Positions 20,952 through 62,798 of a stretch of 64,000 nucleotides of DNA are shown piece by piece. The translations under genes and the position numbers were made by a program. The notes beneath the pieces are model-generated. The model saw only the letters and a list, made by a program, of their open reading frames with translations, made no database searches and was not told the origin of the DNA. The stretch lies in the NCBI GenBank assembly GCA_027487075.1, contig JAIYEG010000010.1:111270-175269 (forward strand). Direction: 5' to 3'. The first letter of the stretch is position 1, and the number at the start of each line of letters is the position of its first letter. This DNA is from a bacterium (GTDB taxonomy: Bacteria; Patescibacteriota; Minisyncoccia; Phycocordibacterales; CALRBL01).

Positions 20952-20967
20952 ATGGGACTAGTATATA

Positions 20968-21000
20968 TAAAAAAACCACCTGTCGCCAGGCGGTTTTTTA
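20968..21000. terminator. Bidirectional rho-independent terminator
   Basis: aaaaaaccacctgtcgccaggcggtttttt: a GC stem flanked by an A-run on one side and a T-run on the other. Confidence 0.6.
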
Positions 21001-21052
21001 CTCTTCCCTCATCACTAATTATCTTAAGTAAAGAGGAGGAAGATGTCAATGT

Positions 21053-21120: not shown

Positions 21121-21252
21121 ACGACTCAAGTTATCAGCTTAAGCCTGCGCATATTCTAAATGACACTATTTAAATTCTCGGCTAAAAGACTATCAATTAT
21201 TTCTAAACAAATAGCCTACAAAACGAGTTTTACCCGCTCCAACACCTCAGAT

Positions 21253-21402
21253 TCATCTAAATTTTGATGGATATTGTTGATTTTCCTTCTTGAGCTGATC
21301 TCCAAAGTAGTGACACAGAACTTTATTCTCGTGATTCAAGACAACTGCACCAACCGATACATGATATGGGTGTTCTTTTGTTCCTTGAAAAATATTTACC
21401 AT
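21253..21402 (-). pseudogene. Truncated NUDIX-like N-terminal fragment of 49 codons; its ATG overlaps the gatB stop (TAATG)
   Basis: MVNIFQGTKEHPYHVSVGAVVLNHENKVLCHYFGDQLKKENQQYPSKFR* stops before any NUDIX box. No continuation appears in other frames. Confidence 0.25.
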
Positions 21403-22847
21403 TAGTTTGAAATCAATTTTATTGCAACTTGCTTGAGCACCTCTGGATTCGCACTTCCCTTCGATGCTTTCATTCCTTGTCCTACGAAAAACATAAGCGC
21501 ACTTTCCTTTCCTGCTTTGTAATCAGCTACCACTTGAGGATTCGCTTCGATAAGTGGCTTAAGAAGTGCTTCGATAGATGCTTCATCGTTTTTCTGAAGC
21601 ATTCCTTCTCGTTCTGCAATTTCCGCAGGATCGCCACCCTTTTCAAACATGATCTTCAAGATATCCTTTCCCGCGCGTGATGAGAGCTTTCCTTCTGCAA
21701 GCATGATCATGAGCTTTGCGAATGCCTCTGCACCATCGTTTCTTCGCGTAAGCCATGCAGGAAAATCAAAGCCTGACGTTTTCACAAAACCAGCAACGTC
21801 GGTGGCGATATAGTTTGCTGCGAGTTGCACCGCTTTCTTATTATCCCCGCACTGTGAAGCGACCTTGTCATAGAAATTTCCATACAGCTCATTTGAAACA
21901 AACATTTCTGCATCCTCAGCTTTAAGACCCATATCCAAGAATCGCTGACGTTTTGCCCATGGTAATTCAGGGAGTTCAGCTGCAAGTGCGTCGCGTGAGA
22001 ATTCAGGAACTTCAGCGAGTTTGATTTTTGGAAGATCTGGATCAGGGAAATAGCGGTAGTCGTGCGAGTTTTCCTTCTTGCGCTGTGAGAAGGTGCTCTG
22101 CTTATTTTCGTCCCATCCGCGTGTTTCCTGTTCGATAGTTCCACCCTTTTCAAGTACTTCAATATGACGCTGTACTTCATAGTCGATTGCGCGCTCCACC
22201 GAACGGAAAGAGTTGAGGTTCTTCACCTCCACTTTTGTTCCGAACTTGTTCTTGTCTTTCGACACTGAGATGTTCGCCTCAACGCGCATCTCGCCTTTCT
22301 CCATGTTCGCTTCGCCGACTTTGAGCGTACGGAGCAAGAGCTGGAGCTCGCGTGCAAAATCCCCTGCCTGCTTGGCAGAATGTATCACCGGCTCAGTCAC
22401 GAGCTCCATGAGTGGAAGTCCAGCACGATTAAAATCTACAAGGCTGTAGTCGCCCGTATCATGCGATGACTTTGCCGTATCTTCTTCGAGGTGGATACGT
22501 GTGATGTCGACGCCATGGAGCGAGCCGCCCGATACGAGCGGATATTTGTATTGGCTGATTTGATATCCTTTCGGAATATCGGGGTAGAAATAGTTTTTAC
22601 GATCAAATTCCGTGAATTCAGTGGCGAGGTGTGAGCCAAGTGCCACACCCACCTTGAGTACGTGCTTCACTGCTTCTTTGTTGATATACGGCAGCGTGCC
22701 AGGGTGGCCCATGCAGATAGGACACACATTTACGTTCGGTCGTTCCTCATCCGGGTCGTTCTTACAACGACAAAACATTTTGGTGTTTGTCTTGAGTTCA
22801 GCATGGATTTCGAGACCAATTGTGGTGAAATATTCAGATTCTGACAT
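21402..22847 (-). CDS. gatB: Asp/Glu-tRNA amidotransferase subunit B
   Basis: 481 aa, MSESEYFTTIGLEIHAEL...CRC...CPIC. This is the GatB N-terminal cradle plus the C-terminal YqeY-like domain. Confidence 0.9.
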   Translation of the reverse strand: MSESEYFTTIGLEIHAELKTNTKMFCRCKNDPDEERPNVNVCPICMGHPGTLPYINKEAVKHVLKVGVALGSHLATEFTEFDRKNYFYPDIPKGYQISQYKYPLVSGGSLHGVDITRIHLEEDTAKSSHDTGDYSLVDFNRAGLPLMELVTEPVIHSAKQAGDFARELQLLLRTLKVGEANMEKGEMRVEANISVSKDKNKFGTKVEVKNLNSFRSVERAIDYEVQRHIEVLEKGGTIEQETRGWDENKQSTFSQRKKENSHDYRYFPDPDLPKIKLAEVPEFSRDALAAELPELPWAKRQRFLDMGLKAEDAEMFVSNELYGNFYDKVASQCGDNKKAVQLAANYIATDVAGFVKTSGFDFPAWLTRRNDGAEAFAKLMIMLAEGKLSSRAGKDILKIMFEKGGDPAEIAEREGMLQKNDEASIEALLKPLIEANPQVVADYKAGKESALMFFVGQGMKASKGSANPEVLKQVAIKLISN

Positions 22848-45535: not shown

Positions 45536-45586
45536 AAAAACCCCGACCATTTCTGGTCGGGGCGGAACAGCGCGAAGCTGTTCCTA
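45536..45586 (-). terminator. Double-hairpin terminator module, copy 1, beginning at the leuA stop codon
   Basis: Minus-strand read TAG-gaacagcttcgcgcgctgttcc-gccccgaccagaaatggtcgggg-ttttt. The same module, differing only in the loop of the first hairpin, follows the 2OG-oxygenase gene at 48241-48298. Confidence 0.6.
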
Positions 45587-47221
45587 TTTTCTGTTCAGCG
45601 CGGAAAGGACCGCACGGATGGACGCCAATGGAATACTCGTATCAACGCCTGCTCCCCACCGGATCGCTCCGTCTTGAAACTGAAGCTTCACATACGAGAT
45701 TGCTTTCGCATCTGCACCACTACCAAGCGCATGCTCAGCTTGATCGAGGATACTCACACCAGTCTCACATCTGCTATTGAAACCACAAACGAATGCATCG
45801 ATTGGACCATTTCCATTCGATGATATTTCGTGACCTTTATACCGATGCGAGACCACTCCCTTGAAGCGACATTCACGTCCGCCTTCATCAAAATGAACTT
45901 CGCCGAGCTTCCACGGATCTGTCCGCGCGACATACTCGTTGAAGAACATAGCTTTCAGATCTGCTGCAGTCGCTTCTCTACCGAGACGATCTATCAAAGG
46001 ACCCGCAATGGCGCCGAATTCCCTCGCCATGTCTTTCGGCAAACGAATACCACAGCCATGTTCGAGCATGTGCGCGATGCCGCCTTTGCCTGACTGTCCG
46101 TTGATGCGGATCAAGCCGTCGCGCGTGCGACCGATGTCCAGCGGATCAATGATGAGATAGGGAACTTCCCATACCACACCTTCGTTCTGCAAGCCTTTGC
46201 GGATTGCATCCTGATGCGATCCGGAGAACGCCGTGAAGACAAGCTCTCCGCTGTATGGCTGGCGCGGTGGCACGGTCATTCCCGTGCATTCCTCATACAC
46301 ATCACGGATCGCATCAAGGTTTGAAAATTCCAAACCAGGATCGATTCCCTGCGTGTACATGTTCAGTGCCACGATGACGATATCGAGATTTCCGGTCCGC
46401 TCTCCGTTTCCAAAGAGCGTTCCTTCTGCCCGATCTGCTCCTGCAAGCAATGCAAGCTCTGTTGCCGCTACACCCGTCCCGCGATCATTGTGCGTATGCA
46501 CACTGATGATAGCCGAGTCGCGCCGCGTCATATGCGTCGCAAACCATTCGATCTGATCTGCATAGACGTTAGGCATGGCCACCTCTACCGTGCACGGAAG
46601 ATTGAGAATCATTCTATGCTCGGGCGTCGGCTGCCACACATCCATCACTGCTTCGCAGACTTCGAGCGCAAACTCCACTTCAGTCGCCGAAAAGCTTTCG
46701 GGCGAATATTGAAAGGTTACATTCGCACCTTGAAGTGCGGCGACGCTTTCTTTGACCCACTTAGTGCCCCGAACTGCCATCGCAATGATGTCCTGCTTTT
46801 CCAAACCGAAGACGATGCGACGCTGTGCTGGCGAGGTGGAGTTGTAGAGATGCATGATGACGTTCTTCGCGCCGACGAGCGACGCGATAGTCGTCTTGAT
46901 GAGTTCCTCACGTGCTTGGACGAGCACTTGGATCGTGACGTCTTCGGGAATGCGCCCTTCTTCGATCAGCTTCCTCACGAATGCGAATTCTGTCGGAGAT
47001 GCTGCCGGAAATCCGACTTCGATTTCTTTGAAACCGCATGCGACGAGTATGTCGAACATCTTCAATTTCTGTTCGACCGTCATGGGAACTGCCAAGGCTT
47101 GGTTGCCATCGCGAAGATCGACGCTGCACCACAAGGGCGCATGCGTGATGCTCTTGTTCGGCCATGTGCGATGCGGAAGATCGATACGCGGAAATGGCAG
47201 ATACTTATGTTGTGGATTCAT
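45584..47221 (-). CDS. leuA: 2-isopropylmalate synthase (long LeuA2-type with C-terminal regulatory domain)
   Basis: 545 aa with a DRE-TIM metallolyase (DLRDGNQA...HTHNDRGTG) and a LeuA-dimer/regulatory C-terminal domain. GC is visibly higher than in the flanks. Confidence 0.85.
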   Translation of the reverse strand: MNPQHKYLPFPRIDLPHRTWPNKSITHAPLWCSVDLRDGNQALAVPMTVEQKLKMFDILVACGFKEIEVGFPAASPTEFAFVRKLIEEGRIPEDVTIQVLVQAREELIKTTIASLVGAKNVIMHLYNSTSPAQRRIVFGLEKQDIIAMAVRGTKWVKESVAALQGANVTFQYSPESFSATEVEFALEVCEAVMDVWQPTPEHRMILNLPCTVEVAMPNVYADQIEWFATHMTRRDSAIISVHTHNDRGTGVAATELALLAGADRAEGTLFGNGERTGNLDIVIVALNMYTQGIDPGLEFSNLDAIRDVYEECTGMTVPPRQPYSGELVFTAFSGSHQDAIRKGLQNEGVVWEVPYLIIDPLDIGRTRDGLIRINGQSGKGGIAHMLEHGCGIRLPKDMAREFGAIAGPLIDRLGREATAADLKAMFFNEYVARTDPWKLGEVHFDEGGRECRFKGVVSHRYKGHEISSNGNGPIDAFVCGFNSRCETGVSILDQAEHALGSGADAKAISYVKLQFQDGAIRWGAGVDTSIPLASIRAVLSALNRK

Positions 47222-47284
47222 ACGAATATTCCTTTCTAAAGAACAACCGAAGTTTAGTTATGACTTTCTTTTGCGCACTCATGT

Positions 47285-47320
47285 AACGCAAAACCAGCTC
47301 CTTCGGTGAAGAGCTGGCTT
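47285..47320 (-). promoter_or_regulatory. Possible leader terminator/attenuator hairpin in the leuA 5' leader
   Basis: Minus-strand ccagctcttcaccgaaggagctgg-ttttgcg lies about 65 nt upstream of the leuA ATG. A 28-codon ORF (47347-47433, MPSQAHNLRTLLNLRTTGGDFACAHTIE) precedes it. Confidence 0.3.
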
Positions 47321-47563
47321 GTATCTATCTATCGTTTTTTCTTCGACTACTCAATAGTATGGGCACAAGCAAAATCTCCACCGGTTGTTCGGAGGTTGAG
47401 CAGGGTTCGAAGATTGTGTGCTTGTGAAGGCATAGGAAAAGAGTAGCGGATTGAGGGTGGGGTGTCAAATGAAAATTATATCTCAAACTAATTTATATAA
47501 AAGAACACCCTGCTCCAGACGAATCTGAAGCAGGGTGCGGGGCCAAGGATCTGTCCGATTGGC

Positions 47564-47992
47564 CTAAACTTTTTTGCGAACGGCCAGGAAACAGCAGAGG
47601 GAAGACCTATCGCAGCCACACCAGAGGAGGCCGAGATAGCGCATCAAGCCATCCCCGCTGAGATACGGGACGCGGAAAAAACCACGGATCTTGCTGACGG
47701 AGCCGAGCGCGAGGATCGGGAACTTATGCTGCTCGTCAGGGTGCTTTGCACCGAAGGCGAGCAGATGCTCCGTTTTCGCCACTTCCCAGCTAGCCTCCTC
47801 GATCAAACGCCCAGCATCCTTCAAAGAGACACGGGGTTCAAAGTGGAAAAGATGGGCTTCCAGCTCTTCCACGCCTTTCCCTTCGATCTGCAAACGCTTG
47901 ACCATGGGATCGTCGATACTCAAGTTGTTGAGATCAGCGGCGATCATCTGTTCGAGCGTCTTCGAGTAATCCACCGAGAGCGTAAAATTCAT
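47564..47992 (-). CDS. Hypothetical protein (GC-rich island)
   Basis: 142-aa ORF with its own downstream hairpin terminator (47506-47537). A 120-aa antisense ORF overlaps it, so the strand choice rests on the start context and the terminator. Confidence 0.4.
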   Translation of the reverse strand: MNFTLSVDYSKTLEQMIAADLNNLSIDDPMVKRLQIEGKGVEELEAHLFHFEPRVSLKDAGRLIEEASWEVAKTEHLLAFGAKHPDEQHKFPILALGSVSKIRGFFRVPYLSGDGLMRYLGLLWCGCDRSSLCCFLAVRKKV

Positions 47993-48240
47993 AGTCGGTC
48001 TTTCAATTTGGAATTGTTCGTTAGAACTATGTCCGTTTATTTGATGCTAGAGGGCTACCTTATCGCCATAGCTAGGAAATGCCCATAATTGAGCAGTTTT
48101 TAGCTATGGCGATATTGCAAATAGGTGTAAAAGAACTGTGGTGTATTATAGCATAATATATACCATATTGTCAATATCGTATATATTATACAAATCATAC
48201 GGCATGGATTATTTATTGTTCGACAGAAGGAGACAATAAA

Positions 48241-48298
48241 AAAACCCCGACCATTTCTGGTCGGGGCGAAACAGCAATGCTGTTCCCAGCTGTTCCTA
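48241..48298 (-). terminator. Double-hairpin terminator module, copy 2, beginning at the 2OG-oxygenase stop codon
   Basis: Minus-strand read TAG-gaacagctgggaacagcattgctgtttc-gccccgaccagaaatggtcgggg-tttttt. Confidence 0.6.
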
Positions 48299-49129
48299 CT
48301 TAAACATCTGCACGAACTCGCCATGCGGCATATCGTAGTTGAAACCGGGTTTCTTCTCCTGCAAGCGACCGTGCCCTGCTTTGTCATACTTTGGAGTACG
48401 ACTCAACTGCACAAAGCATACCGCAGAATATCTTCCATGCCCTGCGGTTTCTGGAGTTGCCACCACCCGATGACACAGCGCACGAAGCGTGCCTTCTGAC
48501 CGAAGCTGTAATTGCATTGACGGAATGATGACCGTCTCACCTTCCGACACCGGCATGTCGATCCACTGACGATCGTCGTAGGTGAGACACTGCAACCCTG
48601 GTGCACTCTCGAACAAGTGAAGAGTGAAGCCACTTTGATCGGTGTGCGCGGTTGCAGTCTCTTCACCGATTTTGCGATCACCGAAGTAGTGAATGAATCG
48701 AACAAAGAACGCTACCTCACTCTCTTCCACCTCTTTGGCGAAACCTTTGATACCAAACTCAGATTCGACCTGAGCAGCAAACTGCACGATGGTCGGCTTC
48801 ATGAGTCCGACGAGCGTACTTGCTTGTTGCACGAACCGACGAGCAACATCAGAGCTCACCGAGCCAAGATGCTGTTCGACCCACTGTTCCCCTGCGAGCG
48901 TGATGTCAAAGTTTTCTTTTCGGTCAGCACTGGGTCCTTCACCAAGTTTGAGTTCGTATCCAACACCATCAGCACCATTGCTGTATGGCAAGCCTCGCTT
49001 CACCTCTTCAGGCAGAGCGCAGAATTTGTGCCACAGACTGATTGTATCCACGACTGCTTGTCGCAAATCGGGAGGATATGAAATTGAAACAAAACCATGA
49101 GTTCCTAGTTGTGTGATTGATGTGTTCAT
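48296..49129 (-). CDS. 2-oxoglutarate/Fe(II)-dependent oxygenase (IPNS/flavanone-hydroxylase-like)
   Basis: 277 aa with an HTDQSGFTLH...H HxD...H facial triad, an RxS-like motif, and a DIOX_N-like N-terminus. Confidence 0.7.
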   Translation of the reverse strand: MNTSITQLGTHGFVSISYPPDLRQAVVDTISLWHKFCALPEEVKRGLPYSNGADGVGYELKLGEGPSADRKENFDITLAGEQWVEQHLGSVSSDVARRFVQQASTLVGLMKPTIVQFAAQVESEFGIKGFAKEVEESEVAFFVRFIHYFGDRKIGEETATAHTDQSGFTLHLFESAPGLQCLTYDDRQWIDMPVSEGETVIIPSMQLQLRSEGTLRALCHRVVATPETAGHGRYSAVCFVQLSRTPKYDKAGHGRLQEKKPGFNYDMPHGEFVQMFK

Positions 49130-49188
49130 AATCTATGAACAGTCTATAGATAGACCCACAAAAAGATAGCGAGGACTCCCTCGGTAGA

Positions 49189-49908
49189 CTATTCCTCGAT
49201 CGTATCGCTCTGTATTTCTTCCTTAAAGAAAAATGGCATGGTATCTATGGTGCCATCTTTAATTGCGGTGAGTACCGGCACCAAACTTCTGATCGAATCA
49301 TACTCAGCAGACTCATGCTGTATCGCTTGATCGATAGGAACCCAGATATGGTGTCCGAACGATGAATCAATAAGAAGCTCACCCGATGATGAGTCAGTAT
49401 AGGCAATGGGAAAGAGTACATCAGAAAAGAGTTCACCTTGTTTGTAGAGAATGCGGCGCTCCATAGCCACAAGTTTGAAGGTGGCATCAAGTCCGGTTTC
49501 TTGTTTGAGTTTACGGGTTGCTGCAGGTTCGATGAGTTCACCTTTGAGCACAACTCCACCCATGACACCAACTTTTCCATACGATGGGTTTGAGTGTCGG
49601 ACCTGATTGAGAATTTCTATCGCACCATTATTGATGCGCGAGACGATAGTGATGACATTCACCTTAAAGAGACTCGTGATGGCGTCGTTAGTGGGATAGG
49701 GATCAGCAACGTGCTTGATTCCCTTTTGTGACAAGGCATAACCCTCATCTGTCTTGGTGACGAAGTCTTTTTTGACGAGGTGTTGGAGGTGGTAGTTGAA
49801 GAGGTCGTTCGGGACTTTGGGAGGTTGGAGCTCGCTATAGCGAAGAGACGCTGCGTTTTTGAGCTTGGAGAGGATATGGTTTTGGATGGGAGACAGGTTG
49901 AGGGACAT
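49189..49908 (-). CDS. NUDIX hydrolase with N-terminal winged-HTH domain
   Basis: 239 aa with N-terminal HTH-like helices and a Nudix box, GVVLKGELIEPAATRKLKQETGL. Confidence 0.6.
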   Translation of the reverse strand: MSLNLSPIQNHILSKLKNAASLRYSELQPPKVPNDLFNYHLQHLVKKDFVTKTDEGYALSQKGIKHVADPYPTNDAITSLFKVNVITIVSRINNGAIEILNQVRHSNPSYGKVGVMGGVVLKGELIEPAATRKLKQETGLDATFKLVAMERRILYKQGELFSDVLFPIAYTDSSSGELLIDSSFGHHIWVPIDQAIQHESAEYDSIRSLVPVLTAIKDGTIDTMPFFFKEEIQSDTIEE

Positions 49909-51126: not shown

Positions 51127-52785
51127 TTAATTTAAATCAATACCGTACCTTTTTACTCTCTGCCTGTTTAAATCAGATTCTTGACCAATTTTAATAAGAG
51201 CATTTTCAAAAGTTGTAGTAATTTTTTTCATTTCATCACTTGCGTTAGCATATTTTCCAAATTGAAGCGCCTGACTAATAATTGTTCGTAACTCTCTTCC
51301 TTCGGAGTTTTTAATTATGCTATAGTAATTTTCAACCGTCACTTCAGAAAGCCTCTTTAAATCATCCTCGTTCCATCCTCCATTTTTAGCAATATCTATT
51401 AATAAACTTTTTGGATCCCTATTATCTTTAAAACTCAAGAACTTATTATTGAATGCCTTAATAAGATTCGGATCACTTAACTCACTCAATAATAAACTTT
51501 GTGTATTATAAAAATTTTTTGATTCCTTTCTTTCATTAATGTAAAAATCAATCATTTCTTCTGCTTCCTCATCTTTATCGAATTTTCTAAAAAGACGAAC
51601 TGTTGCATCTAAATCATTAGGAGTAACTGCCTGCACACCCTTTTTTAGAGACTCTTTAATGTTAGTTAAAATTTCTTCTTTTTCACCTAGAAATGATTCA
51701 TCAAACTTATTCCATGCCTCACCAAAAGTATTACCATAATTTTCAATACTAATACTCTTATCGAATTCATCAGCTTTATCCTTAATTGCCTTGGTATCAA
51801 AATAGCCACACTTAATTGCCTCCAAGATAAGATTATCAACTTCATCAAAATGAGTAAAATTAATTGAACTTAACTGCAACCTCCATCTTTTTTCCACTTC
51901 ATTTTCTTTTGTCTTGCTATCTCTTAAAAAATTATAATGGTTAAAATTCTTAATATAATTGAGGTCAGGTGCAACATTCGGTTGATAAAAAGACCAACCC
52001 AACAAAACGACAGAAGGAAGCCAACCTACGAAAACCTTTTGACTATTATCTTTTAATATAATTTCTAGTTTATCTAAAATTCTTTCAATCTTTTTAATAA
52101 TCCTAATATTTTTGATGTTTAATGATATACAAATACTTTTAAAATCTTTACTAAAAGATTTAGTATCATTGACTGCGATTTGTATAGCTTCAATAGTTGT
52201 TGGTTCAAATTTAATATCAATATCAAAAACTTTTTCTAGTTGCAGATCAAAATCTTTTCTATTATGCTCAGTAAGCATTTCATAATTTAATAACACCACA
52301 ACCTTGCATTTTCTCTGTTCCTTAAGAAACAAGGCCAACCCAAATATATCATTCATGGTTAGATCAGCTCCACAACGTTCTAAATCGTCAATACAAATAA
52401 TTTGATTTGAGACCAAACTAAAAGTAGGAAATATTGATTTATAATCTTTAATTTTTGGTATTTCACCTACAAATTTGTAGACTTTTCTCCAGCTATTCCA
52501 TTTTCCAAAAGAAAAATATGAAAGAATGTAATCAATGTAATTAATTTTAAGTTTTTTAGAATTTTCAAAAATTGAAAATTTTACTTCTTCTAGAGAATTA
52601 ACTCCAAATAAGCTAACGTACGAATACTTTCTCAAAGCAACATTATTTTTTTGAGTAGCTAAATTTAAATAGTGATTCCAAGTATAAGTTTTTCCAACTC
52701 CCCACTCACCAGTAACACACATGATTTCTGGTTCAGAGGTTGAGATAAATCTTTCAATTTCTTCTGCTGCTAGTTTAACTGACAT
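51127..52785 (-). CDS. KAP-family P-loop NTPase
   Basis: 552 aa with Walker A GEWGVGKTYTW and the KAP-type Walker B ICIDDLERC. The gene is strongly AT-rich, about 30 percent GC against about 45 percent in the flanks. Confidence 0.8.
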   Translation of the reverse strand: MSVKLAAEEIERFISTSEPEIMCVTGEWGVGKTYTWNHYLNLATQKNNVALRKYSYVSLFGVNSLEEVKFSIFENSKKLKINYIDYILSYFSFGKWNSWRKVYKFVGEIPKIKDYKSIFPTFSLVSNQIICIDDLERCGADLTMNDIFGLALFLKEQRKCKVVVLLNYEMLTEHNRKDFDLQLEKVFDIDIKFEPTTIEAIQIAVNDTKSFSKDFKSICISLNIKNIRIIKKIERILDKLEIILKDNSQKVFVGWLPSVVLLGWSFYQPNVAPDLNYIKNFNHYNFLRDSKTKENEVEKRWRLQLSSINFTHFDEVDNLILEAIKCGYFDTKAIKDKADEFDKSISIENYGNTFGEAWNKFDESFLGEKEEILTNIKESLKKGVQAVTPNDLDATVRLFRKFDKDEEAEEMIDFYINERKESKNFYNTQSLLLSELSDPNLIKAFNNKFLSFKDNRDPKSLLIDIAKNGGWNEDDLKRLSEVTVENYYSIIKNSEGRELRTIISQALQFGKYANASDEMKKITTTFENALIKIGQESDLNRQRVKRYGIDLN

Positions 52786-52950
52786 AGTTTTAAATTAACT
52801 TGAATTCAAGGCTCGGTCACGGATAATTTTTTGCTAAAAATTTCCGCGACCCCGCCTCGCGCCGTCGCGCTCCGGCTTTCGAGTCCGCGTTACGCTTTCC
52901 ACAAAAGCTACGCCGTCTCTCAGTCTCGCTCACCCTTCGGGTATCGCTTG

Positions 52951-53021
52951 CTGCGAGACTAGGACTCGAACCTAGATAAACGGTGCCAGAAACCGTTGTC
53001 CTACCATTAGACGATCTCGCA
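52951..53021 (-). tRNA. tRNA-Gln(CUG)
   Basis: TGCGAGA-TC-GTCT-AATGGTA-GGAC-A-ACGGT-TTCTGGC-ACCGT-TTATC-CTAGG-TTCGAGT-CCTAG-TCTCGCA-G. U1-A72 and G73 are typical of Gln. The 74-aa ORF 52817..53041 across it is spurious. Confidence 0.85.
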
Positions 53022-53037: not shown

Positions 53038-54138
53038 TCACAAAAACGTGATAACGACAATTTCGGCTTTGGTGCCGATACGAAACGGCGGACCCCAGGT
53101 TCCTGCCCCGCTTGTGGTGATCTGGGTCATGGTGCCGTAGGCTTTCATGCCGTAGTCGTAGCCTTGGTAAATCTTTTTGGTGATGTAGCTCAAGGGATAG
53201 AGCTGGGCGTGGTGGGTGTGACCTGAGACGGCGAGGTCGATACCGGCGGCTTCAGGGACTTCGAGGTGGAGGGGGACGTGTTTGATGAGGATGGTGGGAG
53301 TGGTGCTTGCGGTGGTGAGTGAGGTGAGAACGGAGGTGTAGTCTATGGCATCTTCGGTGGATTGGTAGTCGACACCGATGATGTCGACACCTTGTACCGT
53401 GCGCTTTTCATTGTTGAGGACGGTGACACCTGCATTGCGCAATCCTTCGAAAAAACCGATGGGCGAGCCGTGGAGTTCTTCGTGGTTACCTGAGGCGAAG
53501 TAGACACCCCACGGTGCGGTGATGGTGGCGAGGGGTGCGACACTTGCCTTCTCATCGATCTTCACACCGTCGTACACGTCTCCGGCAAGGAGGACGATGT
53601 CGGCACGTTCGGTGTTGGTGAGGTCGGCGATCTTCTGTGAGAAAGCGGTGCTTCTGATGTTGCCAAGATGCATGTCGGCGACGAGCACGGCTTTCTTTCC
53701 CTTCCACGCTTCAGGTGTGTTTGGGAGGCGCACGTCGTACCTCGTGACCTGCACATCGAATGCGCGGTATGCGCTGTATATGGTGAGGACTCCGGCAATC
53801 ACGACGAATGCGAGACCGATGCGAGAGAGGTATGGTGCAAGTGGTGGGATGAGCGCGATGAGTGCATACAAGATCGAAGCGACAAAGAGAAAATACAAAA
53901 GTCCCATCCAATAGGCAGAAATATTGTACAGCACTTTGATCACGATGTTGCTGTATTGCACAGAAACGATGGTTAACACCAAGAAACTGAGCGCAAGGAC
54001 GACAAACACCGTGCGAAACACGGTGAGGTGCGGCATGAGTGCGGTGGCAAACACCGCAAGAAGAAACTTATACACCGCAAGATGTACGAGTGAGATGATA
54101 CCGAGTACGATGCTGAAGAAAAACGCGAAGGCAATCAT
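53038..54138 (-). CDS. Membrane-anchored metallophosphoesterase (calcineurin-like)
   Basis: 366 aa with N-terminal TM helices and GDxxD / GNHE / GHTH motifs (DMHLG, GDVYDG, SGNHE, SGHTHH). Confidence 0.8.
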   Translation of the reverse strand: MIAFAFFFSIVLGIISLVHLAVYKFLLAVFATALMPHLTVFRTVFVVLALSFLVLTIVSVQYSNIVIKVLYNISAYWMGLLYFLFVASILYALIALIPPLAPYLSRIGLAFVVIAGVLTIYSAYRAFDVQVTRYDVRLPNTPEAWKGKKAVLVADMHLGNIRSTAFSQKIADLTNTERADIVLLAGDVYDGVKIDEKASVAPLATITAPWGVYFASGNHEELHGSPIGFFEGLRNAGVTVLNNEKRTVQGVDIIGVDYQSTEDAIDYTSVLTSLTTASTTPTILIKHVPLHLEVPEAAGIDLAVSGHTHHAQLYPLSYITKKIYQGYDYGMKAYGTMTQITTSGAGTWGPPFRIGTKAEIVVITFL

Positions 54139-54141
54139 GCC

Positions 54142-55068
54142 CTACACCTTAATATATTTCTTGACGGCAATCCAGCTTGAGATGATACCGAGGATGATAC
54201 CTGCTGCAATAATGATGGCAGTAATTTGCATGAAGTTGTCGAGATAGTAGGTGAAGATATTCAAACCAGTACCAAGGTCATACGTATACGGACCGAGCCA
54301 ATACGTGATGGGATAAAAGATAGCGAGGGTAATGAGCGACGAAATGAAGCCGTAGATGATACCGATGATAATGAAGGGGCCTTTGATATAGCGGGCTGAT
54401 GCACCTACGAGGCGCATGACGGCAATCTCATCCTTTGAGGTATAAATAGCGAGACGCACGGTATTGAAGGTGATGAGGATAGAGATGAGTGCGAAGAAGA
54501 TAGTGATGATGAGGCCGAGCTTTTCCGAAGAATCGATCATGCGACTCAAGGTGTCGATAGCTTCTTTGTTTTCGATGTAGCTGATCTTGTCGACGATATT
54601 GCGCGTCTTATCTCCTGAGACATTTTGAGTGGTCACAAAATCTGCAATTGCTTGGTATTGTGACGGATCGACAGCGCGGATGTTAAGACTTGGCTCCAGA
54701 GGATTCCCTCCTACTTCATCGAGCGCTTCGGTGATGAGCGGGTTGTCAGCATGGCGTGCGCGGAAGTTTTCGAGGGCCTCTGCTGCGGTGGTGTAGGTCA
54801 CTGAGGCTACTTCAGGACGCGCTTCGAGTGCTTGCTTGAGTGCTTGCGCTTGATCGTCGGTCGTGGTGGTTTCGAGATAGACATTGATGTCGACTTTCTC
54901 ACGAATTCCCTGCAAGGTTGATTGAAGGAGTGCACCAACAAACAAAATAGAGAGCACCACCGACAACGTCACTGTCATGATGAGTGTTGATGCAACAGAC
55001 ACTGATCCATTGCGAACAAATCCTTTTGCTCCAGCTTTTATGACACGTTTAATTTTGGTCCAGATCAT
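54142..55068 (-). CDS. ftsX: Cell division permease FtsX
   Basis: 308 aa with one N-terminal TM helix, a periplasmic domain and 3 C-terminal TM helices. It lies downstream of ftsE. Confidence 0.85.
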   Translation of the reverse strand: MIWTKIKRVIKAGAKGFVRNGSVSVASTLIMTVTLSVVLSILFVGALLQSTLQGIREKVDINVYLETTTTDDQAQALKQALEARPEVASVTYTTAAEALENFRARHADNPLITEALDEVGGNPLEPSLNIRAVDPSQYQAIADFVTTQNVSGDKTRNIVDKISYIENKEAIDTLSRMIDSSEKLGLIITIFFALISILITFNTVRLAIYTSKDEIAVMRLVGASARYIKGPFIIIGIIYGFISSLITLAIFYPITYWLGPYTYDLGTGLNIFTYYLDNFMQITAIIIAAGIILGIISSWIAVKKYIKV

Positions 55069-55078
55069 ATATGTTTAG

Positions 55079-55759
55079 TTATAGCATGTATTTGCCTGAT
55101 GTATCATCACGCACAATCTTACCATTTTCCATGGTCACCACACGACGACCGAGCGAATCGATGACACCTTTGTTGTGGGTAGTGAGGATGACGGTGGTGC
55201 CGAGGTCGTTAATTTTTTTGAGGATTTGAATGATTTCGTAGGTGTTCACAGGATCGAGGTTTCCGGTCGGCTCGTCAGCGATGATGATGTCAGGCTGATT
55301 GACAATGGCACGTGCAATAGCCACGCGCTGCTTCTCTCCCCCTGAAAGCTGATGAGGAAAATTCCAAATCTTATTGCCGAGATCCACGAGCTCGAGCACA
55401 TGCGGCACATCCACCGCAATCTCCTCTTCGCTACGACCTGCTGCCTCCATAGCAAATGCAATATTCTCATACACGTTCTTATGAGCAAGGAGGCGGAAGT
55501 CTTGGAAAACGGTTCCGATACGACGGCGATAGTTGTTGAGGTCGGTTTTCTTGAGGGCGTGGATATCGGTCTCCTCGAAGTACACTGCACCGTAGGTCGG
55601 CTTCTCTTCTCCGAGGATCATCTTGATGAGTGTGGTCTTACCTGCTCCCGACTGACCTACGATAGACACGAACTCCTTCGGGTCGACACGAAAGGTGATG
55701 TTATCGAGCGCAGCAGTGTGATCGCCGTAGATTTTTGAAACGTTGTCGAAGTAAATCAT
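55079..55759 (-). CDS. ftsE: Cell division ATP-binding protein FtsE
   Basis: It starts MIYFDNVSKIYG at 55759 and has GQSGAGKTT, LSGGEKQR and IADEPTGNLD. The longer 273-aa ORF adds a non-conserved N-terminus. Confidence 0.9.
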   Translation of the reverse strand: MIYFDNVSKIYGDHTAALDNITFRVDPKEFVSIVGQSGAGKTTLIKMILGEEKPTYGAVYFEETDIHALKKTDLNNYRRRIGTVFQDFRLLAHKNVYENIAFAMEAAGRSEEEIAVDVPHVLELVDLGNKIWNFPHQLSGGEKQRVAIARAIVNQPDIIIADEPTGNLDPVNTYEIIQILKKINDLGTTVILTTHNKGVIDSLGRRVVTMENGKIVRDDTSGKYML

Positions 55760-55810
55760 GCGAGATTCATTATACCAGCTGACTTGAGAGGCGCAATCAT
55801 GGAAGAGGCA

Positions 55811-55849
55811 TAAGAAAAGCGCCCGACCACGATGGTCGGGCGCTTTCGA
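55811..55849. terminator. Bidirectional terminator
   Basis: aagaaaagcgcccgaccacgatggtcgggcgctttcgag. Confidence 0.55.
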
Positions 55850-55859
55850 GCCAAGGCAC

Positions 55860-56687
55860 TCAGGCCGCGGCGAGCTTTTTGGAGCAGCACGGATATTCAA
55901 GCCGCTGCCGTACTTTCCACAGCACCACGCCGAGCAGTCCGCCGAACAGGCTTGCGCCGATCATCCACGCGGCGTCCTCAGCTTTGGTGGCCATTGACGG
56001 ACGCAGAAGGTAATCGGCCGAGAAGGCGATCAATGCTCCGACGCCAGCCGCCACGCTTTGCGTGGTAGCAACGTAGAAAAAGAGCGTGATGAGCGCGTCG
56101 AGAATAATGACAATCCACAACAGTACACACACATTCAGAGCGATAATGATGAGTGTCCAATCTCGTGCCATGACCAATGCTTCACGTACACCATGAGCGG
56201 TTACTAGCTTCCCTTCCCTATCACGAAGAGTGATTTTTCTTTCTGGCTTATCACCCGGACCTGAGTCATCAGGAAGCATCCTACCGATCATTTTACACAG
56301 CGGAAACTTGAACGATCCTTTGTCTAAGCACATGCACACTGCGAGCATTGCAGCAATGAAGCCTAGCACCAAAGTGATCGGCGTCGCAAAGTGTGCTGTC
56401 CAAGGCGAGACGAAGTACGTGACGCCGATATGCATCGGCATGATTCCAATGGTGAGCACCATCAGAGAGAAGACTGCCCATATCACCCCTTTGATGGTGT
56501 TTCCGAACACCTCCCAGAATGCTTCGACAGTCTTCTTCGGGTCGCAGAGTGCGATCGCGAATACCACGCCGAGCAAGCCGACGTACCAGGTATCGAAACG
56601 GCGCGTGAGCGCCAAGGACATGAATGTGCCGATTGCGGCGCAGGCAAAAAGCCTGAAGAGTTTTGAAGGAACCGAATTTGGATTCAT
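55860..56687 (-). CDS. Hypothetical polytopic membrane protein (GC-rich gene)
   Basis: About 275 aa from MNPNSVPSKLF, with 7-8 TM helices. Its GC is visibly higher than the neighbours. No recognisable family. Confidence 0.45.
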   Translation of the reverse strand: MNPNSVPSKLFRLFACAAIGTFMSLALTRRFDTWYVGLLGVVFAIALCDPKKTVEAFWEVFGNTIKGVIWAVFSLMVLTIGIMPMHIGVTYFVSPWTAHFATPITLVLGFIAAMLAVCMCLDKGSFKFPLCKMIGRMLPDDSGPGDKPERKITLRDREGKLVTAHGVREALVMARDWTLIIIALNVCVLLWIVIILDALITLFFYVATTQSVAAGVGALIAFSADYLLRPSMATKAEDAAWMIGASLFGGLLGVVLWKVRQRLEYPCCSKKLAAA

Positions 56688-56777
56688 AAACAAGCATGAC
56701 GTAGATCGGGCACCATGCACGACGATACGTTCTGCTAGCAGATTACAACGTTTACATCGTAAGTCAAAGCGGTTTAG

Positions 56778-57183: not shown

Positions 57184-57369
57184 AAAAGGGACAGGCACCT
57201 TTTTATAGAAGTAATTGAGCTGTAGAATGTTCTCGCCTGGAGAAAACATTGCGCAAGCACGACGGTGCGAGCATAAGAATTTTCTAGTAAGAAAATATCT
57301 GTGTTTTCGAAGGGCGTAGAAGATTGTACAACCAAGTTGCTTGGTGAAAAAAGGTGCCTGTCCCCTTTT
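57184..57369. repeat. Copy C of the TIR-flanked long-hairpin intergenic element, about 186 bp
   Basis: The TIRs are aaaagggacaggcaccttttt and aaaaaaggtgcctgtcccctttt, and the core is gcgagcataagaattttctagtaagaaaatatctgtgttttcgaag. The right TIR overlaps the prfB stop, and the left TIR ends 20 nt before the cyt-b5-like start. Confidence 0.6.
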
Positions 57370-58225
57370 ATTTGATAAACAAATCGAGATCTCCAGCGAG
57401 CACACTTTCGACATCACTCGTCTCTACTTCAGTACGATGATCCTTCACCATCTTGTAGGGATGAAGCACATACGAACGGATCTGGTTGCCCCATTCATTG
57501 TCACTCGTCTTTGAGACATACATTCCCTTTTCTTTTGCCAAACGCTCTTCTTCTTTGCGTACATAGAGCTTTGCCTTGAGGAGCGCGATCGCTTTTTCTT
57601 TGTTTTGTGCCTGACTGCGCTCACTCGTCACATGCACTGATATTTTTGTCGGGATATGAAGCATGCGCACCGCGGTCTCGCGCTTGTTCACGTTTTGTCC
57701 TCCAGGACCTCCGGCGCGTGCGATCGTCACTTCGATTTCATCATCTTTGAGTTCAATATCTGCCGAGGTATGTTCGAACTTCGGAATCACTTCCACCATA
57801 GCAAACGATGTCTGTCGCAAACCCTTCGCACCAAATGGCGAAATGCGCACCAAGCGATGGACACCTGATTCATTCTTCAAATCACCGTATACATTTTTTC
57901 CTGATACTTCAAAGGTCACATTACGGATACCATTGTGATCATTTTGATGTTCATGAATAAGCACACTTTTCCAACCCCGCTTTTCGATGTATCGCTGATA
58001 CATATCAAAGAGCATACGTGCCCAATCTTCGGCATCATCTCCTCCTGCACCAGCAAAGATAGTGACCACGGCATCACCGCGATCGTACTTTTTTTCGGGA
58101 TCACCATCGCGCTTGAGTGCATTGAGTTCTTGTACGAGCTCCTGCGCTTTATCTTTGTTTGCCCAGAATCCTGGATCAAGCATGGCGTCTTCGATTTCTT
58201 TGATGCGTTGTTCGTATGCTGACAT
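57368..58225 (-). CDS. prfB: Peptide chain release factor 2 without the programmed +1 frameshift leader
   Basis: It has the SPF tripeptide ([10 protein letters not shown]) and GGQ ([19 protein letters not shown]). It starts [21 protein letters not shown], which aligns to the region just after the frameshift site of E. coli and B. subtilis RF2. The ORF track's 58226-58294 extension is a TTG read-through of the tRNA-Thr gene. Confidence 0.85.
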
Positions 58226-58233
58226 GTATATTG

Positions 58234-58309
58234 TGGAGCCAAAGGGCGGGATCGAACCGCCGACCCTTCGCTTACGATGCGAATGCTCTACCAACTGAGC
58301 TACTTTGGC
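58234..58309 (-). tRNA. tRNA-Thr(CGU), CCA encoded
   Basis: GCCAAAG-TA-GCTC-AGTTGGTA-GAGC-A-TTCGC-ATCGTAA-GCGAA-GGGTC-GGCGG-TTCGATC-CCGCC-CTTTGGC-T-CCA. Confidence 0.85.
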
Positions 58310-62210: not shown

Positions 62211-62798
62211 TTAAATATTTTCAATAACCTTACTAATAGAGGTTTTAAGCTTCATATTATTGAAATACACCGTCAAAACCCCATGTTCAGATTTTCTACC
62301 ATAACTACCCTTTCCTCTTATCTGACTCACCACAATTGATGGATAAAAGTAGTCTAAACTAAAACCCAATTCCTTAGACCAAAATTGAAGAGCGACATTT
62401 GGATCAATATCGTTAAATATTTGTAAACCAAACCTCAACTTAGTGGCATCAATTTTATAAGTGTGTATTAAAAATTTTATGAACATTTTTATCAAACTCG
62501 GATCAGTATTTCCCAACCTTACTGAATACTTATTCCTTTTATTACCCTCACCCCAAAATAATCCAATACCTAAACCAAATAAAAAATCATCATAATTACT
62601 AATGTTTTGCGGAAGAGTAAATGGATCACCTTTTATATTGTTTTTAATATAAATTGATTCTGAAATTGATCTTTTCTCAATATTAAATTTTTTCAACCAG
62701 TAATTTACTTTTGAAACTGTGTAATTTACATCAAGCGCGATTTCAGCAGCTGATTTTTTATTACTTACATATTCTCTATACAAGTATTCTTTATCCAC
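62211..62798 (-). CDS. Free-standing putative LAGLIDADG-like homing endonuclease, AT-rich, immediately upstream of the intron-containing tRNA
   Basis: 195 aa. Residues 1-45 are helix-turn-helix-like. The motif DFLFGLGIGLFWGEGNK fits a degenerate LAGLIDADG (GIGLFWGEG), followed by a basic beta-saddle-like region. GC is about 30 percent. Confidence 0.45.
   Translation of the reverse strand: MDKEYLYREYVSNKKSAAEIALDVNYTVSKVNYWLKKFNIEKRSISESIYIKNNIKGDPFTLPQNISNYDDFLFGLGIGLFWGEGNKRNKYSVRLGNTDPSLIKMFIKFLIHTYKIDATKLRFGLQIFNDIDPNVALQFWSKELGFSLDYFYPSIVVSQIRGKGSYGRKSEHGVLTVYFNNMKLKTSISKVIENI

Follow-up and report, generated by a model that had tools for sequence, protein, structure and literature searches.

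A solitary leuA with a predicted leucine attenuator beside a putative DGR target remnant and a wHTH-NUDIX/2OG-Fe(II) oxygenase pair in a CPR genome

Long-form (type II) 2-isopropylmalate synthases (IPMS), such as those of Mycobacterium tuberculosis (PDB 1SR9/3FIG) and Verrucomicrobium spinosum, have a three-domain architecture in common. Classical ribosome-mediated attenuators, e.g. Escherichia coli leuL, combine a short leader ORF containing a run of Leu codons, placed before a leucine-pathway gene, with alternative antiterminator and terminator hairpins and a U-run. The actinobacterial "LEU element" shares the leader ORF and the Leu run, but is described as a pseudoknot in which the Shine-Dalgarno box pairs with the Leu codons, no terminator being obvious (PMC1262725). 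Variable proteins of diversity-generating retroelements (DGRs) that have C-type-lectin-fold VRs include Mtd of Bordetella phage BPP-1, and many DGR targets are reported in CPR (PMC8144416). Isopenicillin-N-synthase-like 2OG-Fe(II) oxygenases, among them the iron/ascorbate oxidoreductase family of PDB 3ON7, AdaV and ACC oxidase, share the PF03171 domain and HxD...H...RxS motifs.

The window, i.e. the whole 64-kb stretch of DNA analysed here, derives from a CPR (Patescibacteria) genome, probably of Paceibacteria type. We regard it as likely that the region is a mosaic of a native wHTH-NUDIX/oxygenase pair, a DGR target remnant and a self-contained acquired leuA module (leader attenuator, leuA, terminator). 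The oxygenase gene, a 142-aa hypothetical gene and leuA are adjacent, all on the minus strand, separated by spacers of 300-340 nt and positioned as in the preliminary description. Features are given in the direction of transcription:

49189..49908, minus strand: wHTH (DUF7347)-NUDIX gene (Pfam DUF7347 and NUDIX)
48296-49129, minus strand: 2OG-Fe(II) oxygenase gene, 277 aa, isopenicillin-N-synthase-like family, PF03171
48240..48298, minus strand: direct-repeat copy A: stop codon of the oxygenase gene, small hairpin at 48286-48268, terminator hairpin CCCCGACCAGAAATGGTCGGGG and T-run
48145..48174, minus strand: sigma-70-type promoter of perfect consensus (TTGACA-18-TATAAT, TG-extended), upstream of the 142-aa gene
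47564-47992, minus strand: hypothetical gene, 142 aa
47505..47538, minus strand: predicted terminator of the 142-aa gene, a 15-bp hairpin with T-run, downstream of the VR
47289..47433, minus strand: leuA leader, predicted leucine attenuator (leader ORF, segments 1-3, terminator)
47433-47347, minus strand: leader ORF, 28 codons, MPSQAHNLRTLLNLRTTGGDFACAHTIE
47400-47394, minus strand: leader segment 1
47382-47364, minus strand: leader segment 2
47322-47305, minus strand: leader segment 3
47320-47289, minus strand: leader terminator
45584-47221, minus strand: leuA, 545 aa, long-form 2-isopropylmalate synthase
45536..45586, minus strand: direct-repeat copy B: stop codon of leuA, small hairpin at 45584-45564, terminator hairpin CCCCGACCAGAAATGGTCGGGG and T-run

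Because each of the three genes is followed by an intrinsic terminator and the middle gene is preceded by a consensus promoter, they are predicted to form independent transcription units, i.e. three unrelated, separately transcribed neighbours.

The leuA product matches NF002991 with 783.5 bits (cutoff 455), in agreement with its initial assignment as a long-form LeuA, and scores 686.9 against the TIGR00970 equivalog, just under the cutoff of 697.4. Scores against CimA, NifV and homocitrate-synthase models are far under their cutoffs. The ORF is full-length with HMGL-like, IPMS_D2 and LeuA_dimer domains (Pfam) and matches 190 of 196 near-invariant positions; alignment to M. tuberculosis LeuA 1SR9 (E 5e-155) shows that every catalytic and 2-oxoisovalerate-pocket residue is kept. 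Its regulatory domain is without the mycobacterial insertion, and the protein is 62-66% identical to Verrucomicrobia LeuA, whose genes are likewise stand-alone. In M. tuberculosis numbering, the catalytic residues are R80, D81, H285, H287, E218, H379 and Y410, and those of the pocket L143, H167, Y169, S216, N250, P252 and T254. Judged by its sequence, the protein is an intact long-form IPMS, which would condense acetyl-CoA with 2-oxoisovalerate to 2-isopropylmalate; its C-terminal LeuA_dimer domain would permit feedback by leucine.

A conserved Leu-run leader peptide is also present upstream of leuA in the loci L001, L004, L088, L089 and L019, with invariant blocks in the nucleotide alignment. 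Two clade members (L003 and L005) and the Verrucomicrobia loci read showed no such leader before leuA; the leader matches no Rfam family. Folding of the terminator gives -17.0 kcal/mol, and when segment 1 is masked the antiterminator of segments 2 and 3 wins at -24.9. This antiterminator is the predicted minimum-energy fold in 36/36 related instances (mean -22.7, versus -12.7 with segment 2 shuffled). From sequence elements, conservation and thermodynamics we infer ribosome-mediated regulation by leucine, as we infer the enzyme activity. With Leu-tRNA plentiful, the ribosome would read through the 28-codon leader and cover segment 2, so that segments 3 and 4 would form the terminator and transcription would stop. 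With Leu scarce, the four Leu codons would stall it, segment 2 would pair with segment 3 and leuA would be transcribed. The leader has the alternative hairpins and the U-run of leuL and differs from the LEU element. Unlike in classical attenuators, the leader ORF contains the antiterminator strand, so that the peptide tail ...GGDFAC is fixed, and on metagenome contigs this scaffold recurs with Ile codons ahead of IlvA, CimA-like and unknown genes. The regulatory codons follow the downstream enzyme, with Leu runs before long LeuA and Ile runs before IlvA and CimA-like genes.

In a neighbour-joining phylogeny of about 150 sequences, LeuA falls into a "CPR-type" clade (bootstrap 95%) of 49 sequences (47 protein clusters and two genome loci) that takes in named Paceibacterota MAGs but consists mostly of unnamed metagenome proteins, the tie to CPR being given by name or gene content only for the window, L004, L005/P0059 and P0015. 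The clade joins Verrucomicrobiae/Chthoniobacterales with a bootstrap of 100% and is placed inside Verrucomicrobiota with 79%; LeuA is nested in Verrucomicrobiota LeuA. Verrucomicrobia are the nearest named non-CPR relatives. No donor can be named, identity to the closest LeuA being only 74%. The GC content of leuA exceeds that of its flanks by 0.15 (L004), 0.10 (L005), 0.086 (window) and 0.06 (L001), and by about 0 in Verrucomicrobia. The genomic context of leuA is different in every CPR-type locus. Deviant composition, nesting in Verrucomicrobiota LeuA, differing contexts and a bracketing direct repeat of about 50 nt make leuA look horizontally acquired, with Verrucomicrobiota-like ancestry rather than tracking CPR relatives.

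The repeat copies bracket a 2.7-kb segment composed of the 142-aa gene and leuA. Copy A matches 45536-45564 with 36 nt at 97% and with 29 nt exact (blastn), and a 22-mer of the repeat occurs twice in the window (0 expected). A related terminator, GCCCCGAYC...GRTCGGGG, stands behind leuA in L004, L005 and L143, and variant forms do so in L001, L088 and L116; the repeat appears to originate from the 3' end of leuA and its terminator. Since both genes lie between the two copies, they probably came to their place behind the oxygenase gene jointly, by insertion or rearrangement, and together they look acquired. Neither an integrase nor a transposase lies in or adjoins the segment, and relatives yielded no exact empty site.

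The 142-aa protein has 22 other family members (the 23rd row of the search is the window protein itself), each matching 96-98% of its length; 20 of the 22 are 192-237 aa long and two are short forms of 149-151 aa. The homologue in L084 represents a textbook DGR arrangement: its 3' end (VR) matches a template repeat (TR) 529 nt downstream, with 20/20 mismatches at TR adenines, and a reverse transcriptase (RT) gene follows. The VR-like part of the window gene (about 47574-47704) retains the adenine-specific pattern, differing from the L084 TR at 23/33 A and 15/98 non-A positions (Fisher p 1.3e-8). Similarity to L084 extends beyond the coding region (81% identity), with 77% over the promoter side (48184-47997 against the region upstream of the L084 target gene) and 91% between 47551-47471 and L084 10686-10766; the hairpin at 47505..47538, a homologue of the one that follows the VR in the L084 DGR, would terminate transcription of the 142-aa gene. 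An AF2 model (pLDDT 89) matches mostly C-type-lectin-like domains, weakly. In contrast to described DGR variable proteins, the window copy lacks an N-terminal domain and has neither a TR to its VR within the 64 kb nor an RT gene there (Pfam annotation of nearly all called ORFs). It matches 39 of 52 near-invariant family positions (13 lost), other members 85-100%. The gene is best described as a putative N-terminally deleted, decaying homologue of a DGR target protein: promoter, gene and post-VR hairpin would have been kept, and about 72 N-terminal codons, TR and RT lost, with conserved residues eroding.

The oxygenase matches PF03171 with 40.8 bits (Pfam cutoff 23), and its H162-x-D164...H220...R233-x-S235 motif is at least 99% conserved in 120 homologues. 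It is only distantly similar to 3ON7, AdaV and ACC oxidase, its closest solved relatives (E about 1e-6). Among 544 homologues, those with names are Patescibacteria, hundreds of them at 62-70%. A wHTH-NUDIX gene lies directly upstream of the homologue in 3/3 other genomes examined, L085 (78% identity), L214 (Taylorbacteria) and L215 (Minisyncoccota); the 3' flanks of these loci are unrelated to that of the window. In all three, the oxygenase GC content is above the rest of the locus by 0.02-0.04 (here 0.06 over the window average). Given the Patescibacteria homologues, the conserved synteny, the recurring GC excess and typical codon usage, the oxygenase family appears CPR-specific and the gene native, with the wHTH-NUDIX gene as its presumably native, conserved upstream partner.

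Base composition had suggested a GC-rich block, which holds in part. Window GC is 0.447 (median of the 55 other genes 0.456, robust sd 0.021). The 142-aa gene (0.545, robust z 4.3, GC3 0.69) is the window maximum and leuA (0.531, robust z 3.6) forms a GC step, but the oxygenase (0.507, robust z 2.5) is only mildly enriched, and three other genes are comparable: 53038-54138 (0.539), 55860-56720 (0.534) and 55079-55900 (0.506). The reported abundance of CCG/CGC/GCG codons applies to leuA (20/22/40 versus 7/11/18 per thousand, a 2-3 fold enrichment) and partially to the 142-aa gene; CGC and GCG are not enriched in the oxygenase. Synonymous codon bias against the window (Karlin B) ranks the 142-aa gene 1/58, leuA 23/58 (7th of 32 long genes) and the oxygenase 37/58, which is typical. 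Tetranucleotide distance gives z 2.5 at leuA. The strongest tetranucleotide outlier of the 64 kb lies away from leuA, at 51.2-52.8 kb (z 6.9). The GC excess has three different causes: in leuA it would reflect foreign ancestry, only partly ameliorated; in the 142-aa gene, it would be characteristic of the DGR target family, with high GC over the entire length of the gene (5' part 0.543, VR part 0.55) and adenine depletion in the VR only; in the oxygenase, it would be a gene-intrinsic bias common to orthologues.

A single acquired cassette of LeuA, 142-aa protein and oxygenase making something other than leucine, as the preliminary description proposed, would account for three adjacent genes on the same strand with GC above average, but is highly improbable. 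Terminators and spacers separate the genes, neither the oxygenase nor the 142-aa gene occurs within 10 kb of LeuA in any of about 90 LeuA loci, nor do the genes co-occur in the three other oxygenase loci, all from different genomes. The gene in the middle is a DGR target in decay, and the oxygenase is CPR-native with typical codon usage and keeps another partner in the relatives compared for synteny. Of the proposed acquired block, leuA with the 142-aa gene is supported. Moreover, canonical IPMS residues and the Leu-codon leader point to a role of leuA in leucine metabolism. Recent capture of leuA as a passenger that has no function or decays like the DGR remnant is very improbable: leuA has a deviant composition and shares the repeat-bracketed segment with a visibly decaying gene, but its ORF and three domains are intact, near-invariant positions are kept far better than in that neighbour (190/196 versus 39/52), and leader, terminator and ribosome-binding region are intact and conserved across a clade of only about 70% identity. 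An assembly or binning artefact, i.e. a verrucomicrobial fragment joined to a CPR contig, might be read from the GC step and the Verrucomicrobia relatives, yet we give it next to no credence. The DUF5684-NUDIX-2OG-hyp-leuA junctions recur at 100% identity in two Logan assemblies of different sequencing runs (3653 and 2288 nt), leuA GC is intermediate at 0.53, not verrucomicrobial (0.56-0.66), and leader and terminator are common to other CPR-type loci and absent from the Verrucomicrobia loci read.

Unlike other long-form LeuA systems, the window leuA lies in a CPR genome with no other pathway gene visible in 64 kb. The reported absence of leuBCD and ilv genes holds for the whole window (tblastn with E. 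coli LeuB/C/D and IlvA/C/D/E/H/I, E<=1e-6; Pfam annotation of nearly all called ORFs) and, out to 10 kb from leuA, for seven CPR-type loci. LeuA might be an orphan enzyme in this and other CPR genomes, which would be devoid of leuCD and leuB, induced by leucine starvation and making 2-isopropylmalate for a host or partner that completes leucine synthesis, or for another role. This is rather unlikely, though the window is otherwise poor in biosynthesis genes, LeuA is patchy in CPR (49 clade sequences versus >500 clusters of the native oxygenase) and no discussion of it in CPR was found in the literature searched. Missing neighbours are a weak argument, however: leuB/C/D adjoin none of about 75 subfamily members in Verrucomicrobia and Pseudomonas loci, both from prototrophic lineages, or in other loci, so a solitary leuA is normal for the subfamily and says little about the pathway. 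Some related contigs carry other biosynthetic genes, PurF and PurH (L089) or a homoserine-dehydrogenase-like gene adjoining leuA (L091). Within the favoured mosaic, leuA and its neighbours do not constitute a new biosynthetic cassette, and a predicted leucine-sensing attenuator maintained by strong selection is most readily understood if what leuA makes feeds the organism's own leucine pool.

The region of leuA (45584-47221, 545 aa), the 142-aa gene (47564-47992) and the 2OG-Fe(II) oxygenase gene (48296-49129, 277 aa) is a mosaic in which a NUDIX-oxygenase pair is native, a target of a diversity-generating retroelement (DGR) is dead or orphaned, and a leuA module is acquired and predicted to be leucine-attenuated; all of these components belong to known kinds. 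The window has a GC content of 44.7%, with nearly all genes on the (-) strand, and the Pfam content of nearly all called ORFs is typical of small-genome Patescibacteria (CPR): ribosomal proteins S2 and L25, EF-Ts, RF1/RF2, SecA, GatB, Obg, a split transketolase, RpiB, Rpe, GAPDH, a class II aldolase, ribonucleotide reductase and FtsEX, besides giant PG_binding/GLUG surface proteins. No amino-acid biosynthetic gene other than leuA is recognised by Pfam among nearly all called ORFs of the 64 kb. Named homologues of the proteins studied come from Paceibacterota, Taylorbacteria, Minisyncoccota or the "Patescibacteria group".

The preliminary description had suggested that LeuA, the hypothetical protein and the oxygenase might form a single cassette. 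This reading is tempting but wrong, and we reject it: a terminator is predicted after every gene, a consensus promoter stands ahead of the middle gene, and the three do not co-occur in the other LeuA and oxygenase loci examined.

Predicted transcription signals of the three genes
48267-48244, (-), strong intrinsic terminator 3' of the oxygenase gene (prediction)
48174-48145, (-), perfect TTGACA-18-TATAAT promoter ahead of the 142-aa gene (consensus match)
47538-47505, (-), strong intrinsic terminator 3' of the 142-aa gene (prediction)
45563-45540, (-), strong intrinsic terminator 3' of leuA (prediction)

The genes lie 303 and 342 nt apart and are predicted not to be co-transcribed. Neither the oxygenase nor the 142-aa protein is found in ~90 loci of LeuA relatives (tblastn, ±10 kb), and in three further CPR genomes (L085, L214 and L215; L-numbers denote homologous loci or contigs from other genomes or metagenomes) the locus of the oxygenase contains no LeuA. 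Conserved co-occurrence of the three thus amounts to 0/~90 LeuA loci and 0/3 other oxygenase loci from different genomes.

The oxygenase is, on sequence grounds, native to CPR. It has the double-stranded beta-helix domain of the 2OG-Fe(II) oxygenase superfamily (PF03171, above cutoff) and carries the HxD...H iron triad and the RxS 2OG-binding motif, with H162, D164, H220, R233 and S235 each at least 99% conserved and 77 of its 277 positions at least 98% conserved. The best 120 of 544 homologues detected share 62-70% identity with it, and the nearest solved structures (3ON7, AdaV, ACC oxidase) are distant. A wHTH(DUF7347)-NUDIX gene is located directly 5' of the oxygenase gene in L085, L214 (Taylorbacteria) and L215 (Minisyncoccota), as in the window, and the upstream genes RF2-FtsE-FtsX are also common to L085 and the window. 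In all three other genomes the oxygenase gene lies a few GC points above the rest of the locus and above the NUDIX gene, again as in the window, so its GC excess is intrinsic to the gene. The pair conserved in these genomes (49189-49908 and 48296-49129 in the window) opens with a protein whose N-terminus is a winged helix (DUF7347) and whose C-terminus is a NUDIX domain, and the oxygenase comes 59-120 nt further on; this arrangement suggests that the wHTH-NUDIX protein is a Nudix-type regulator or a nucleotide-linked partner of the oxygenase. An Aminotran_4 gene (branched-chain or D-amino-acid aminotransferase family, 2932-3852) occurs near the pair in L215.

Apart from the window protein itself, only 22 homologues of the 142-aa protein were found: 20, with a length of 192-237 aa, have an extra N-terminal domain, and the other two are short (149-151 aa). 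The closest (64% identity) is encoded in L084, where a 131-nt repeat of the gene's own 3' end follows downstream, forming a variable repeat (VR) and a template repeat (TR). All 20 differences between these copies (20/20) fall at adenines of the downstream one, and a reverse transcriptase gene with an RVT domain follows the TR; the L084 locus is a textbook DGR. Window positions 48184-47471 are homologous to this module, with 77% identity in the promoter region, 81% in the gene and 91% in the hairpin after the VR, and approximately 72 N-terminal codons are cleanly deleted relative to L084 (blastn). No remnants of the missing domain are detected 5' of the 142-aa gene (tblastn). Compared with the TR of L084, a foreign template, the window VR (~47574-47704) mismatches at 23 of 33 adenine positions vs 15 of 98 others (p 1.3e-8). 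A template repeat for this VR is found nowhere in the window (blastn, word size 7), and no reverse transcriptase gene or RVT domain is present among the window ORFs (Pfam). Of 52 residues that are near-invariant in the family, 13 are furthermore missing from the window protein; every other member keeps 85-100% of them. Structure matches to its AlphaFold model (pLDDT 89) are nearly all C-type-lectin-like domains, but they are not significant. These alignments mark the 142-aa gene as a DGR target in decay, dead or orphaned. Adenine depletion of the VR, considered as the full cause of its high GC content, holds only partly: the 5' part (0.543) is as GC-rich as the VR (0.55), and the L084 homologue reaches 0.583 vs 0.416 in its flanks, so that high GC is a trait of this DGR target family.

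LeuA contains the three expected domains above cutoffs, i.e. the HMGL-like TIM-barrel catalytic domain (PF00682, 246 bits), the post-catalytic subdomain (PF22615, 94.5 bits) and the C-terminal LeuA_dimer regulatory domain (PF08502, 79.9 bits). It passes the subfamily model NF002991 (783.5 bits vs a cutoff of 455) and falls narrowly below the equivalog model TIGR00970 (686.9 vs 697.4). Placement with CimA or NifV, also considered at the outset, finds no support, as TIGR00977 (citramalate synthase, 73.9 vs 450), TIGR02660 (NifV, 105 vs 463) and TIGR02146 (homocitrate synthase, 93.9 vs 414) all score far below their cutoffs. Aligned to Mycobacterium tuberculosis LeuA 1SR9 (phmmer, E 5e-155), the protein keeps R80, D81, H285, H287, E218, H379 and Y410 and all residues of the 2-oxoisovalerate pocket, which we take to serve metal, catalytic and 2-oxoisovalerate functions in the mycobacterial enzyme. 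It matches 190 of 196 positions near-invariant among 104 non-CPR homologues. Judged by domains and residues, leuA encodes an intact 2-isopropylmalate synthase of the long form, and the acquired module is apparently functional.

The best LeuA matches are metagenome proteins of 64-74% identity, several of them named Paceibacterota, followed by Verrucomicrobia (62-66%). In neighbour-joining trees the window LeuA belongs to a clade of 49 sequences that includes all named CPR ones (bootstrap 95%); this CPR-type clade joins Verrucomicrobiae/Chthoniobacterales with 100% support, and the two together lie within a broader Verrucomicrobiota assemblage (79%). The GC content of leuA exceeds that of its flanks by 0 to 0.15 in CPR-type loci (0.086 in the window) vs approximately 0 in Verrucomicrobia, and the gene neighbourhood differs in every CPR-type locus. 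Tree position, GC excess and differing neighbourhoods together support transfer of leuA into CPR and its continued mobility. In L004, a contig of a "Saccharibacteria" MAG, leuA and its leader are situated between two ORFs matching HAD hydrolases (160-498 and 2518-2985), with the C-terminal part of the profile before leuA and Hydrolase_like after it, and leuA is 0.146 GC-richer than the flanks; this hints at insertion into or beside a HAD gene.

In the window the leuA module is bracketed by repeats. The stretch from the leuA stop codon through the terminator (45586-45536) is directly repeated after the oxygenase stop codon (48298-48240); the copies agree exactly over 29 nt, at 97% over 36 nt and, with gaps, over approximately 50 nt. 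The 22-nt hairpin of this repeat occurs at these two sites only within the window. The leuA terminator GCCCCGACC...GGTCGGGG recurs 3' of leuA in L004, L005 and L143, with variants in L001, L088 and L116, and the 3' flanks of oxygenase orthologues are unrelated. An integron-like attC site or a REP element, to which such a hairpin might be compared, is not borne out: there are only two copies in 64 kb, no integrase, and matches to leuA terminators in other genomes. Duplication of the 3' end of leuA is the better reading of the repeated hairpin. Between the repeats lie the DGR remnant and the leuA module, 2.7 kb in total, and the junction of DGR-derived and leuA-derived sequence falls at ~47470-47416, just past the TATAAT (47480-47475) of the DGR-homologous stretch. 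The hairpin after the VR and the AT-rich stretch with this TATAAT (47471-47551) are 91% identical to L084 10686-10766, the target genes 81%; the DGR-derived TATAAT, ~40 nt 5' of the leuA leader, may drive the leader. No integrase, transposase or other recombinase is encoded in the 2.7-kb segment. An exact empty site was not found, the relatives with the NUDIX-2OG pair (L085, L214, L215) carrying different downstream genes. The bracketed segment could have arisen by duplication and subsequent deletion, or by insertion of a terminally redundant fragment. An assembly chimera is excluded, since all junctions are reproduced at 100% identity in two Logan assemblies from different runs. The notion of an acquired block is upheld for leuA, by phylogenetic incongruence, deviant composition and flanking repeats, but not as a three-gene cassette.

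The region 5' of leuA contains a short leader ORF and a terminator of its own.

Predicted leader features of leuA
47433-47347, (-), leader ORF of 28 codons 5' of leuA, MPSQAHNLRTLLNLRTTGGDFACAHTIE, with 4 Leu in 8 codons
47320-47289, (-), leader terminator hairpin with U-run, 3' of the leader ORF

Homologous leaders with at least 5 Leu, e.g. MIRYAQNLLALLNLRKKGGDFACV and MIRHSKNLLALLSLRKNGGDFTCA, are present 5' of leuA in 5 of 7 distinct CPR-type loci, and in L019. Two nucleotide blocks, GGTGGAGATTTTGCTTGTG and ACAAGCCAGCTCTTCACC, are invariant among them and complementary to each other. The terminator is predicted to fold with -17.0 kcal/mol, the antiterminator with -24.9 kcal/mol when the Leu-codon segment 1 is masked, mimicking a stalled ribosome. 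A metagenome scan for an 18-mer examined 84 pattern matches (80 loci), about half of which were chance matches within coding sequence and were discarded; together with the copies from LeuA-derived loci and the window, 36 distinct genuine copies result. The alternative pairing is present in 36 of 36 (mean -22.7 vs -12.7 with the segment shuffled). Leu-run leaders precede this long LeuA; some of them, in other contigs, precede short LeuA/CimA-like genes or uncharacterised small proteins. Leaders of this scaffold with an Ile run are followed by IlvA (L109) and CimA-like genes (L106, L146). The codon run matches the pathway, which serves as an internal control. leuA is thus predicted to be under its own regulation by a ribosome-mediated leucine attenuator.

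The scaffold has the consensus GGTGGAGAyyTTGCTyGTG ... ACAAGCCAGCTCTTCACC, and the leader peptides end in ...GG(D/G/E)(F/L)A(C/R). Members comprise window 47289-47433, L001, L004, L019 (9860 and 11869), L088, L089 and L093-L171, ~36 instances altogether; within the window no copy besides the one 5' of leuA is found. Rfam yields only four tRNAs, both for the whole window at gathering threshold and for 45.3-49.3 kb at E<=1, with no T-box, leu leader or riboswitch. These copies appear to constitute a modular family of leader-peptide attenuators that is without an Rfam entry. Leu- or Ile-run leaders also precede uncharacterised small proteins 5' of gatC-gatA (L098, L103, L163, L165) or DAHP synthase (L114), and L019, L114, L155, L163 and L165 have a Leu and an Ile copy in tandem. 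Pfam assigns no families to the non-LeuA genes after related attenuators in L133, L171, L103, L155, L114, L124 and L098. The contig L019, with a basal "type B" leader, ends (~12.3-12.9 kb) in a stretch that reads as 16S rRNA sequence, from the 5' end of the gene (…GAATGCTGGCGGCGTG…CATGCAAGTCGA…).

The three genes had been described as a GC-rich block with frequent CCG/CGC/GCG codons. Measured against the 55 other genes, GC-richness is real for leuA (0.531, 3.6 robust sd) and the 142-aa gene (0.545, 4.3 robust sd; GC3 0.69) but weak for the oxygenase (0.507, 2.5 sd), and it is not unique in the window, as three genes at 53-56.7 kb match the block in GC content. The enrichment of CCG/CGC/GCG is 2-3 fold in leuA, and in leuA only. 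In synonymous codon bias (58 genes) the 142-aa gene is the most deviant of the window and leuA moderately so (rank 23/58), whereas the oxygenase is ordinary (37/58). The region shows that a single GC bump can have three unrelated causes.

Other compositional outliers occur nearby. A 552-aa KAP-family P-loop NTPase-like gene (51127-52785, (-)) has a GC content of 0.287 vs 0.447 for the window, is its strongest tetranucleotide outlier (z 6.9) and directly adjoins tRNA-Gln (52950-53021, (-)); the gene probably represents a small islet of foreign origin, and its composition departs much further from that of the window than the leuA region does. The genes at 53038-56720 (-), encoding a metallophosphoesterase, FtsX, FtsE and an uncharacterised membrane protein, have GC contents of 0.47-0.54 (three of the four at 0.51-0.54), and in codon bias the metallophosphoesterase and FtsE genes equal or exceed leuA. 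Because FtsE and FtsX share synteny with L085, this high GC is not simply foreignness. A 195-aa ORF without Pfam match (62211-62798, (-); GC 0.287) has the third highest codon deviation of the window. The longest RF2-like ORF (57368-58294, (-)) overlaps tRNA-Thr (58234-58309, (-)) with its 5' end, and PCRF is matched from profile position 93 onwards; the true RF2 start therefore lies downstream, or the usual prfB frameshift is involved, and the ORF call is unreliable.

The reported lack of further leucine-pathway genes nearby is confirmed, as tblastn with E. coli LeuB, LeuC, LeuD, IlvA, IlvC, IlvD, IlvE, IlvH and IlvI matches nothing in the 64 kb. In ~75 non-CPR loci of this LeuA subfamily leuB, leuC or leuD never occur within 10 kb, and only ilvIH (Desulfobulbaceae) and ilvIHC (one betaproteobacterium) are found near it. 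A solitary leuA is the norm for the subfamily, so a 64-kb window cannot decide on pathway completeness. L091 possesses a homoserine-dehydrogenase-like gene (8722-9612) directly 5' of leuA, and L089 PurH-like and PurF-like genes near leuA (15322-15927 and 20869-21650); CPR-type lineages with such scattered biosynthetic genes (L215, L091, L089) may be less auxotrophic than assumed. Literature searches returned no paper linking leader-peptide attenuation to Patescibacteria; nor did they give anything relevant to leucine biosynthesis or to isopropylmalate synthase in Patescibacteria, CPR or Parcubacteria.

Patescibacteria are ultra-small and usually described as amino-acid auxotrophs. An unlikely, though conceivable, scenario is that a set of CPR keeps only the first committed leucine enzyme under a starvation attenuator and feeds 2-isopropylmalate to a partner, a pathway split between episymbiont and host, with the Leu/Ile scaffold acting as a general amino-acid sensor that also controls the small proteins 5' of gatCA and the DAHP synthase gene. 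Wider interest attaches only to the leader scaffold and to the orphan question of LeuA in CPR. In these ultra-small cells purifying selection maintains an acquired leuA, apparently of verrucomicrobial type, that has a conserved predicted leucine attenuator. If the rest of the pathway is present in whole genomes, some CPR lineages would have regained leucine prototrophy through gene transfer; if it is missing, LeuA would be an orphan, implying metabolite exchange with a host. The Leu/Ile leader scaffold would be a handle on amino-acid sensing in Patescibacteria.
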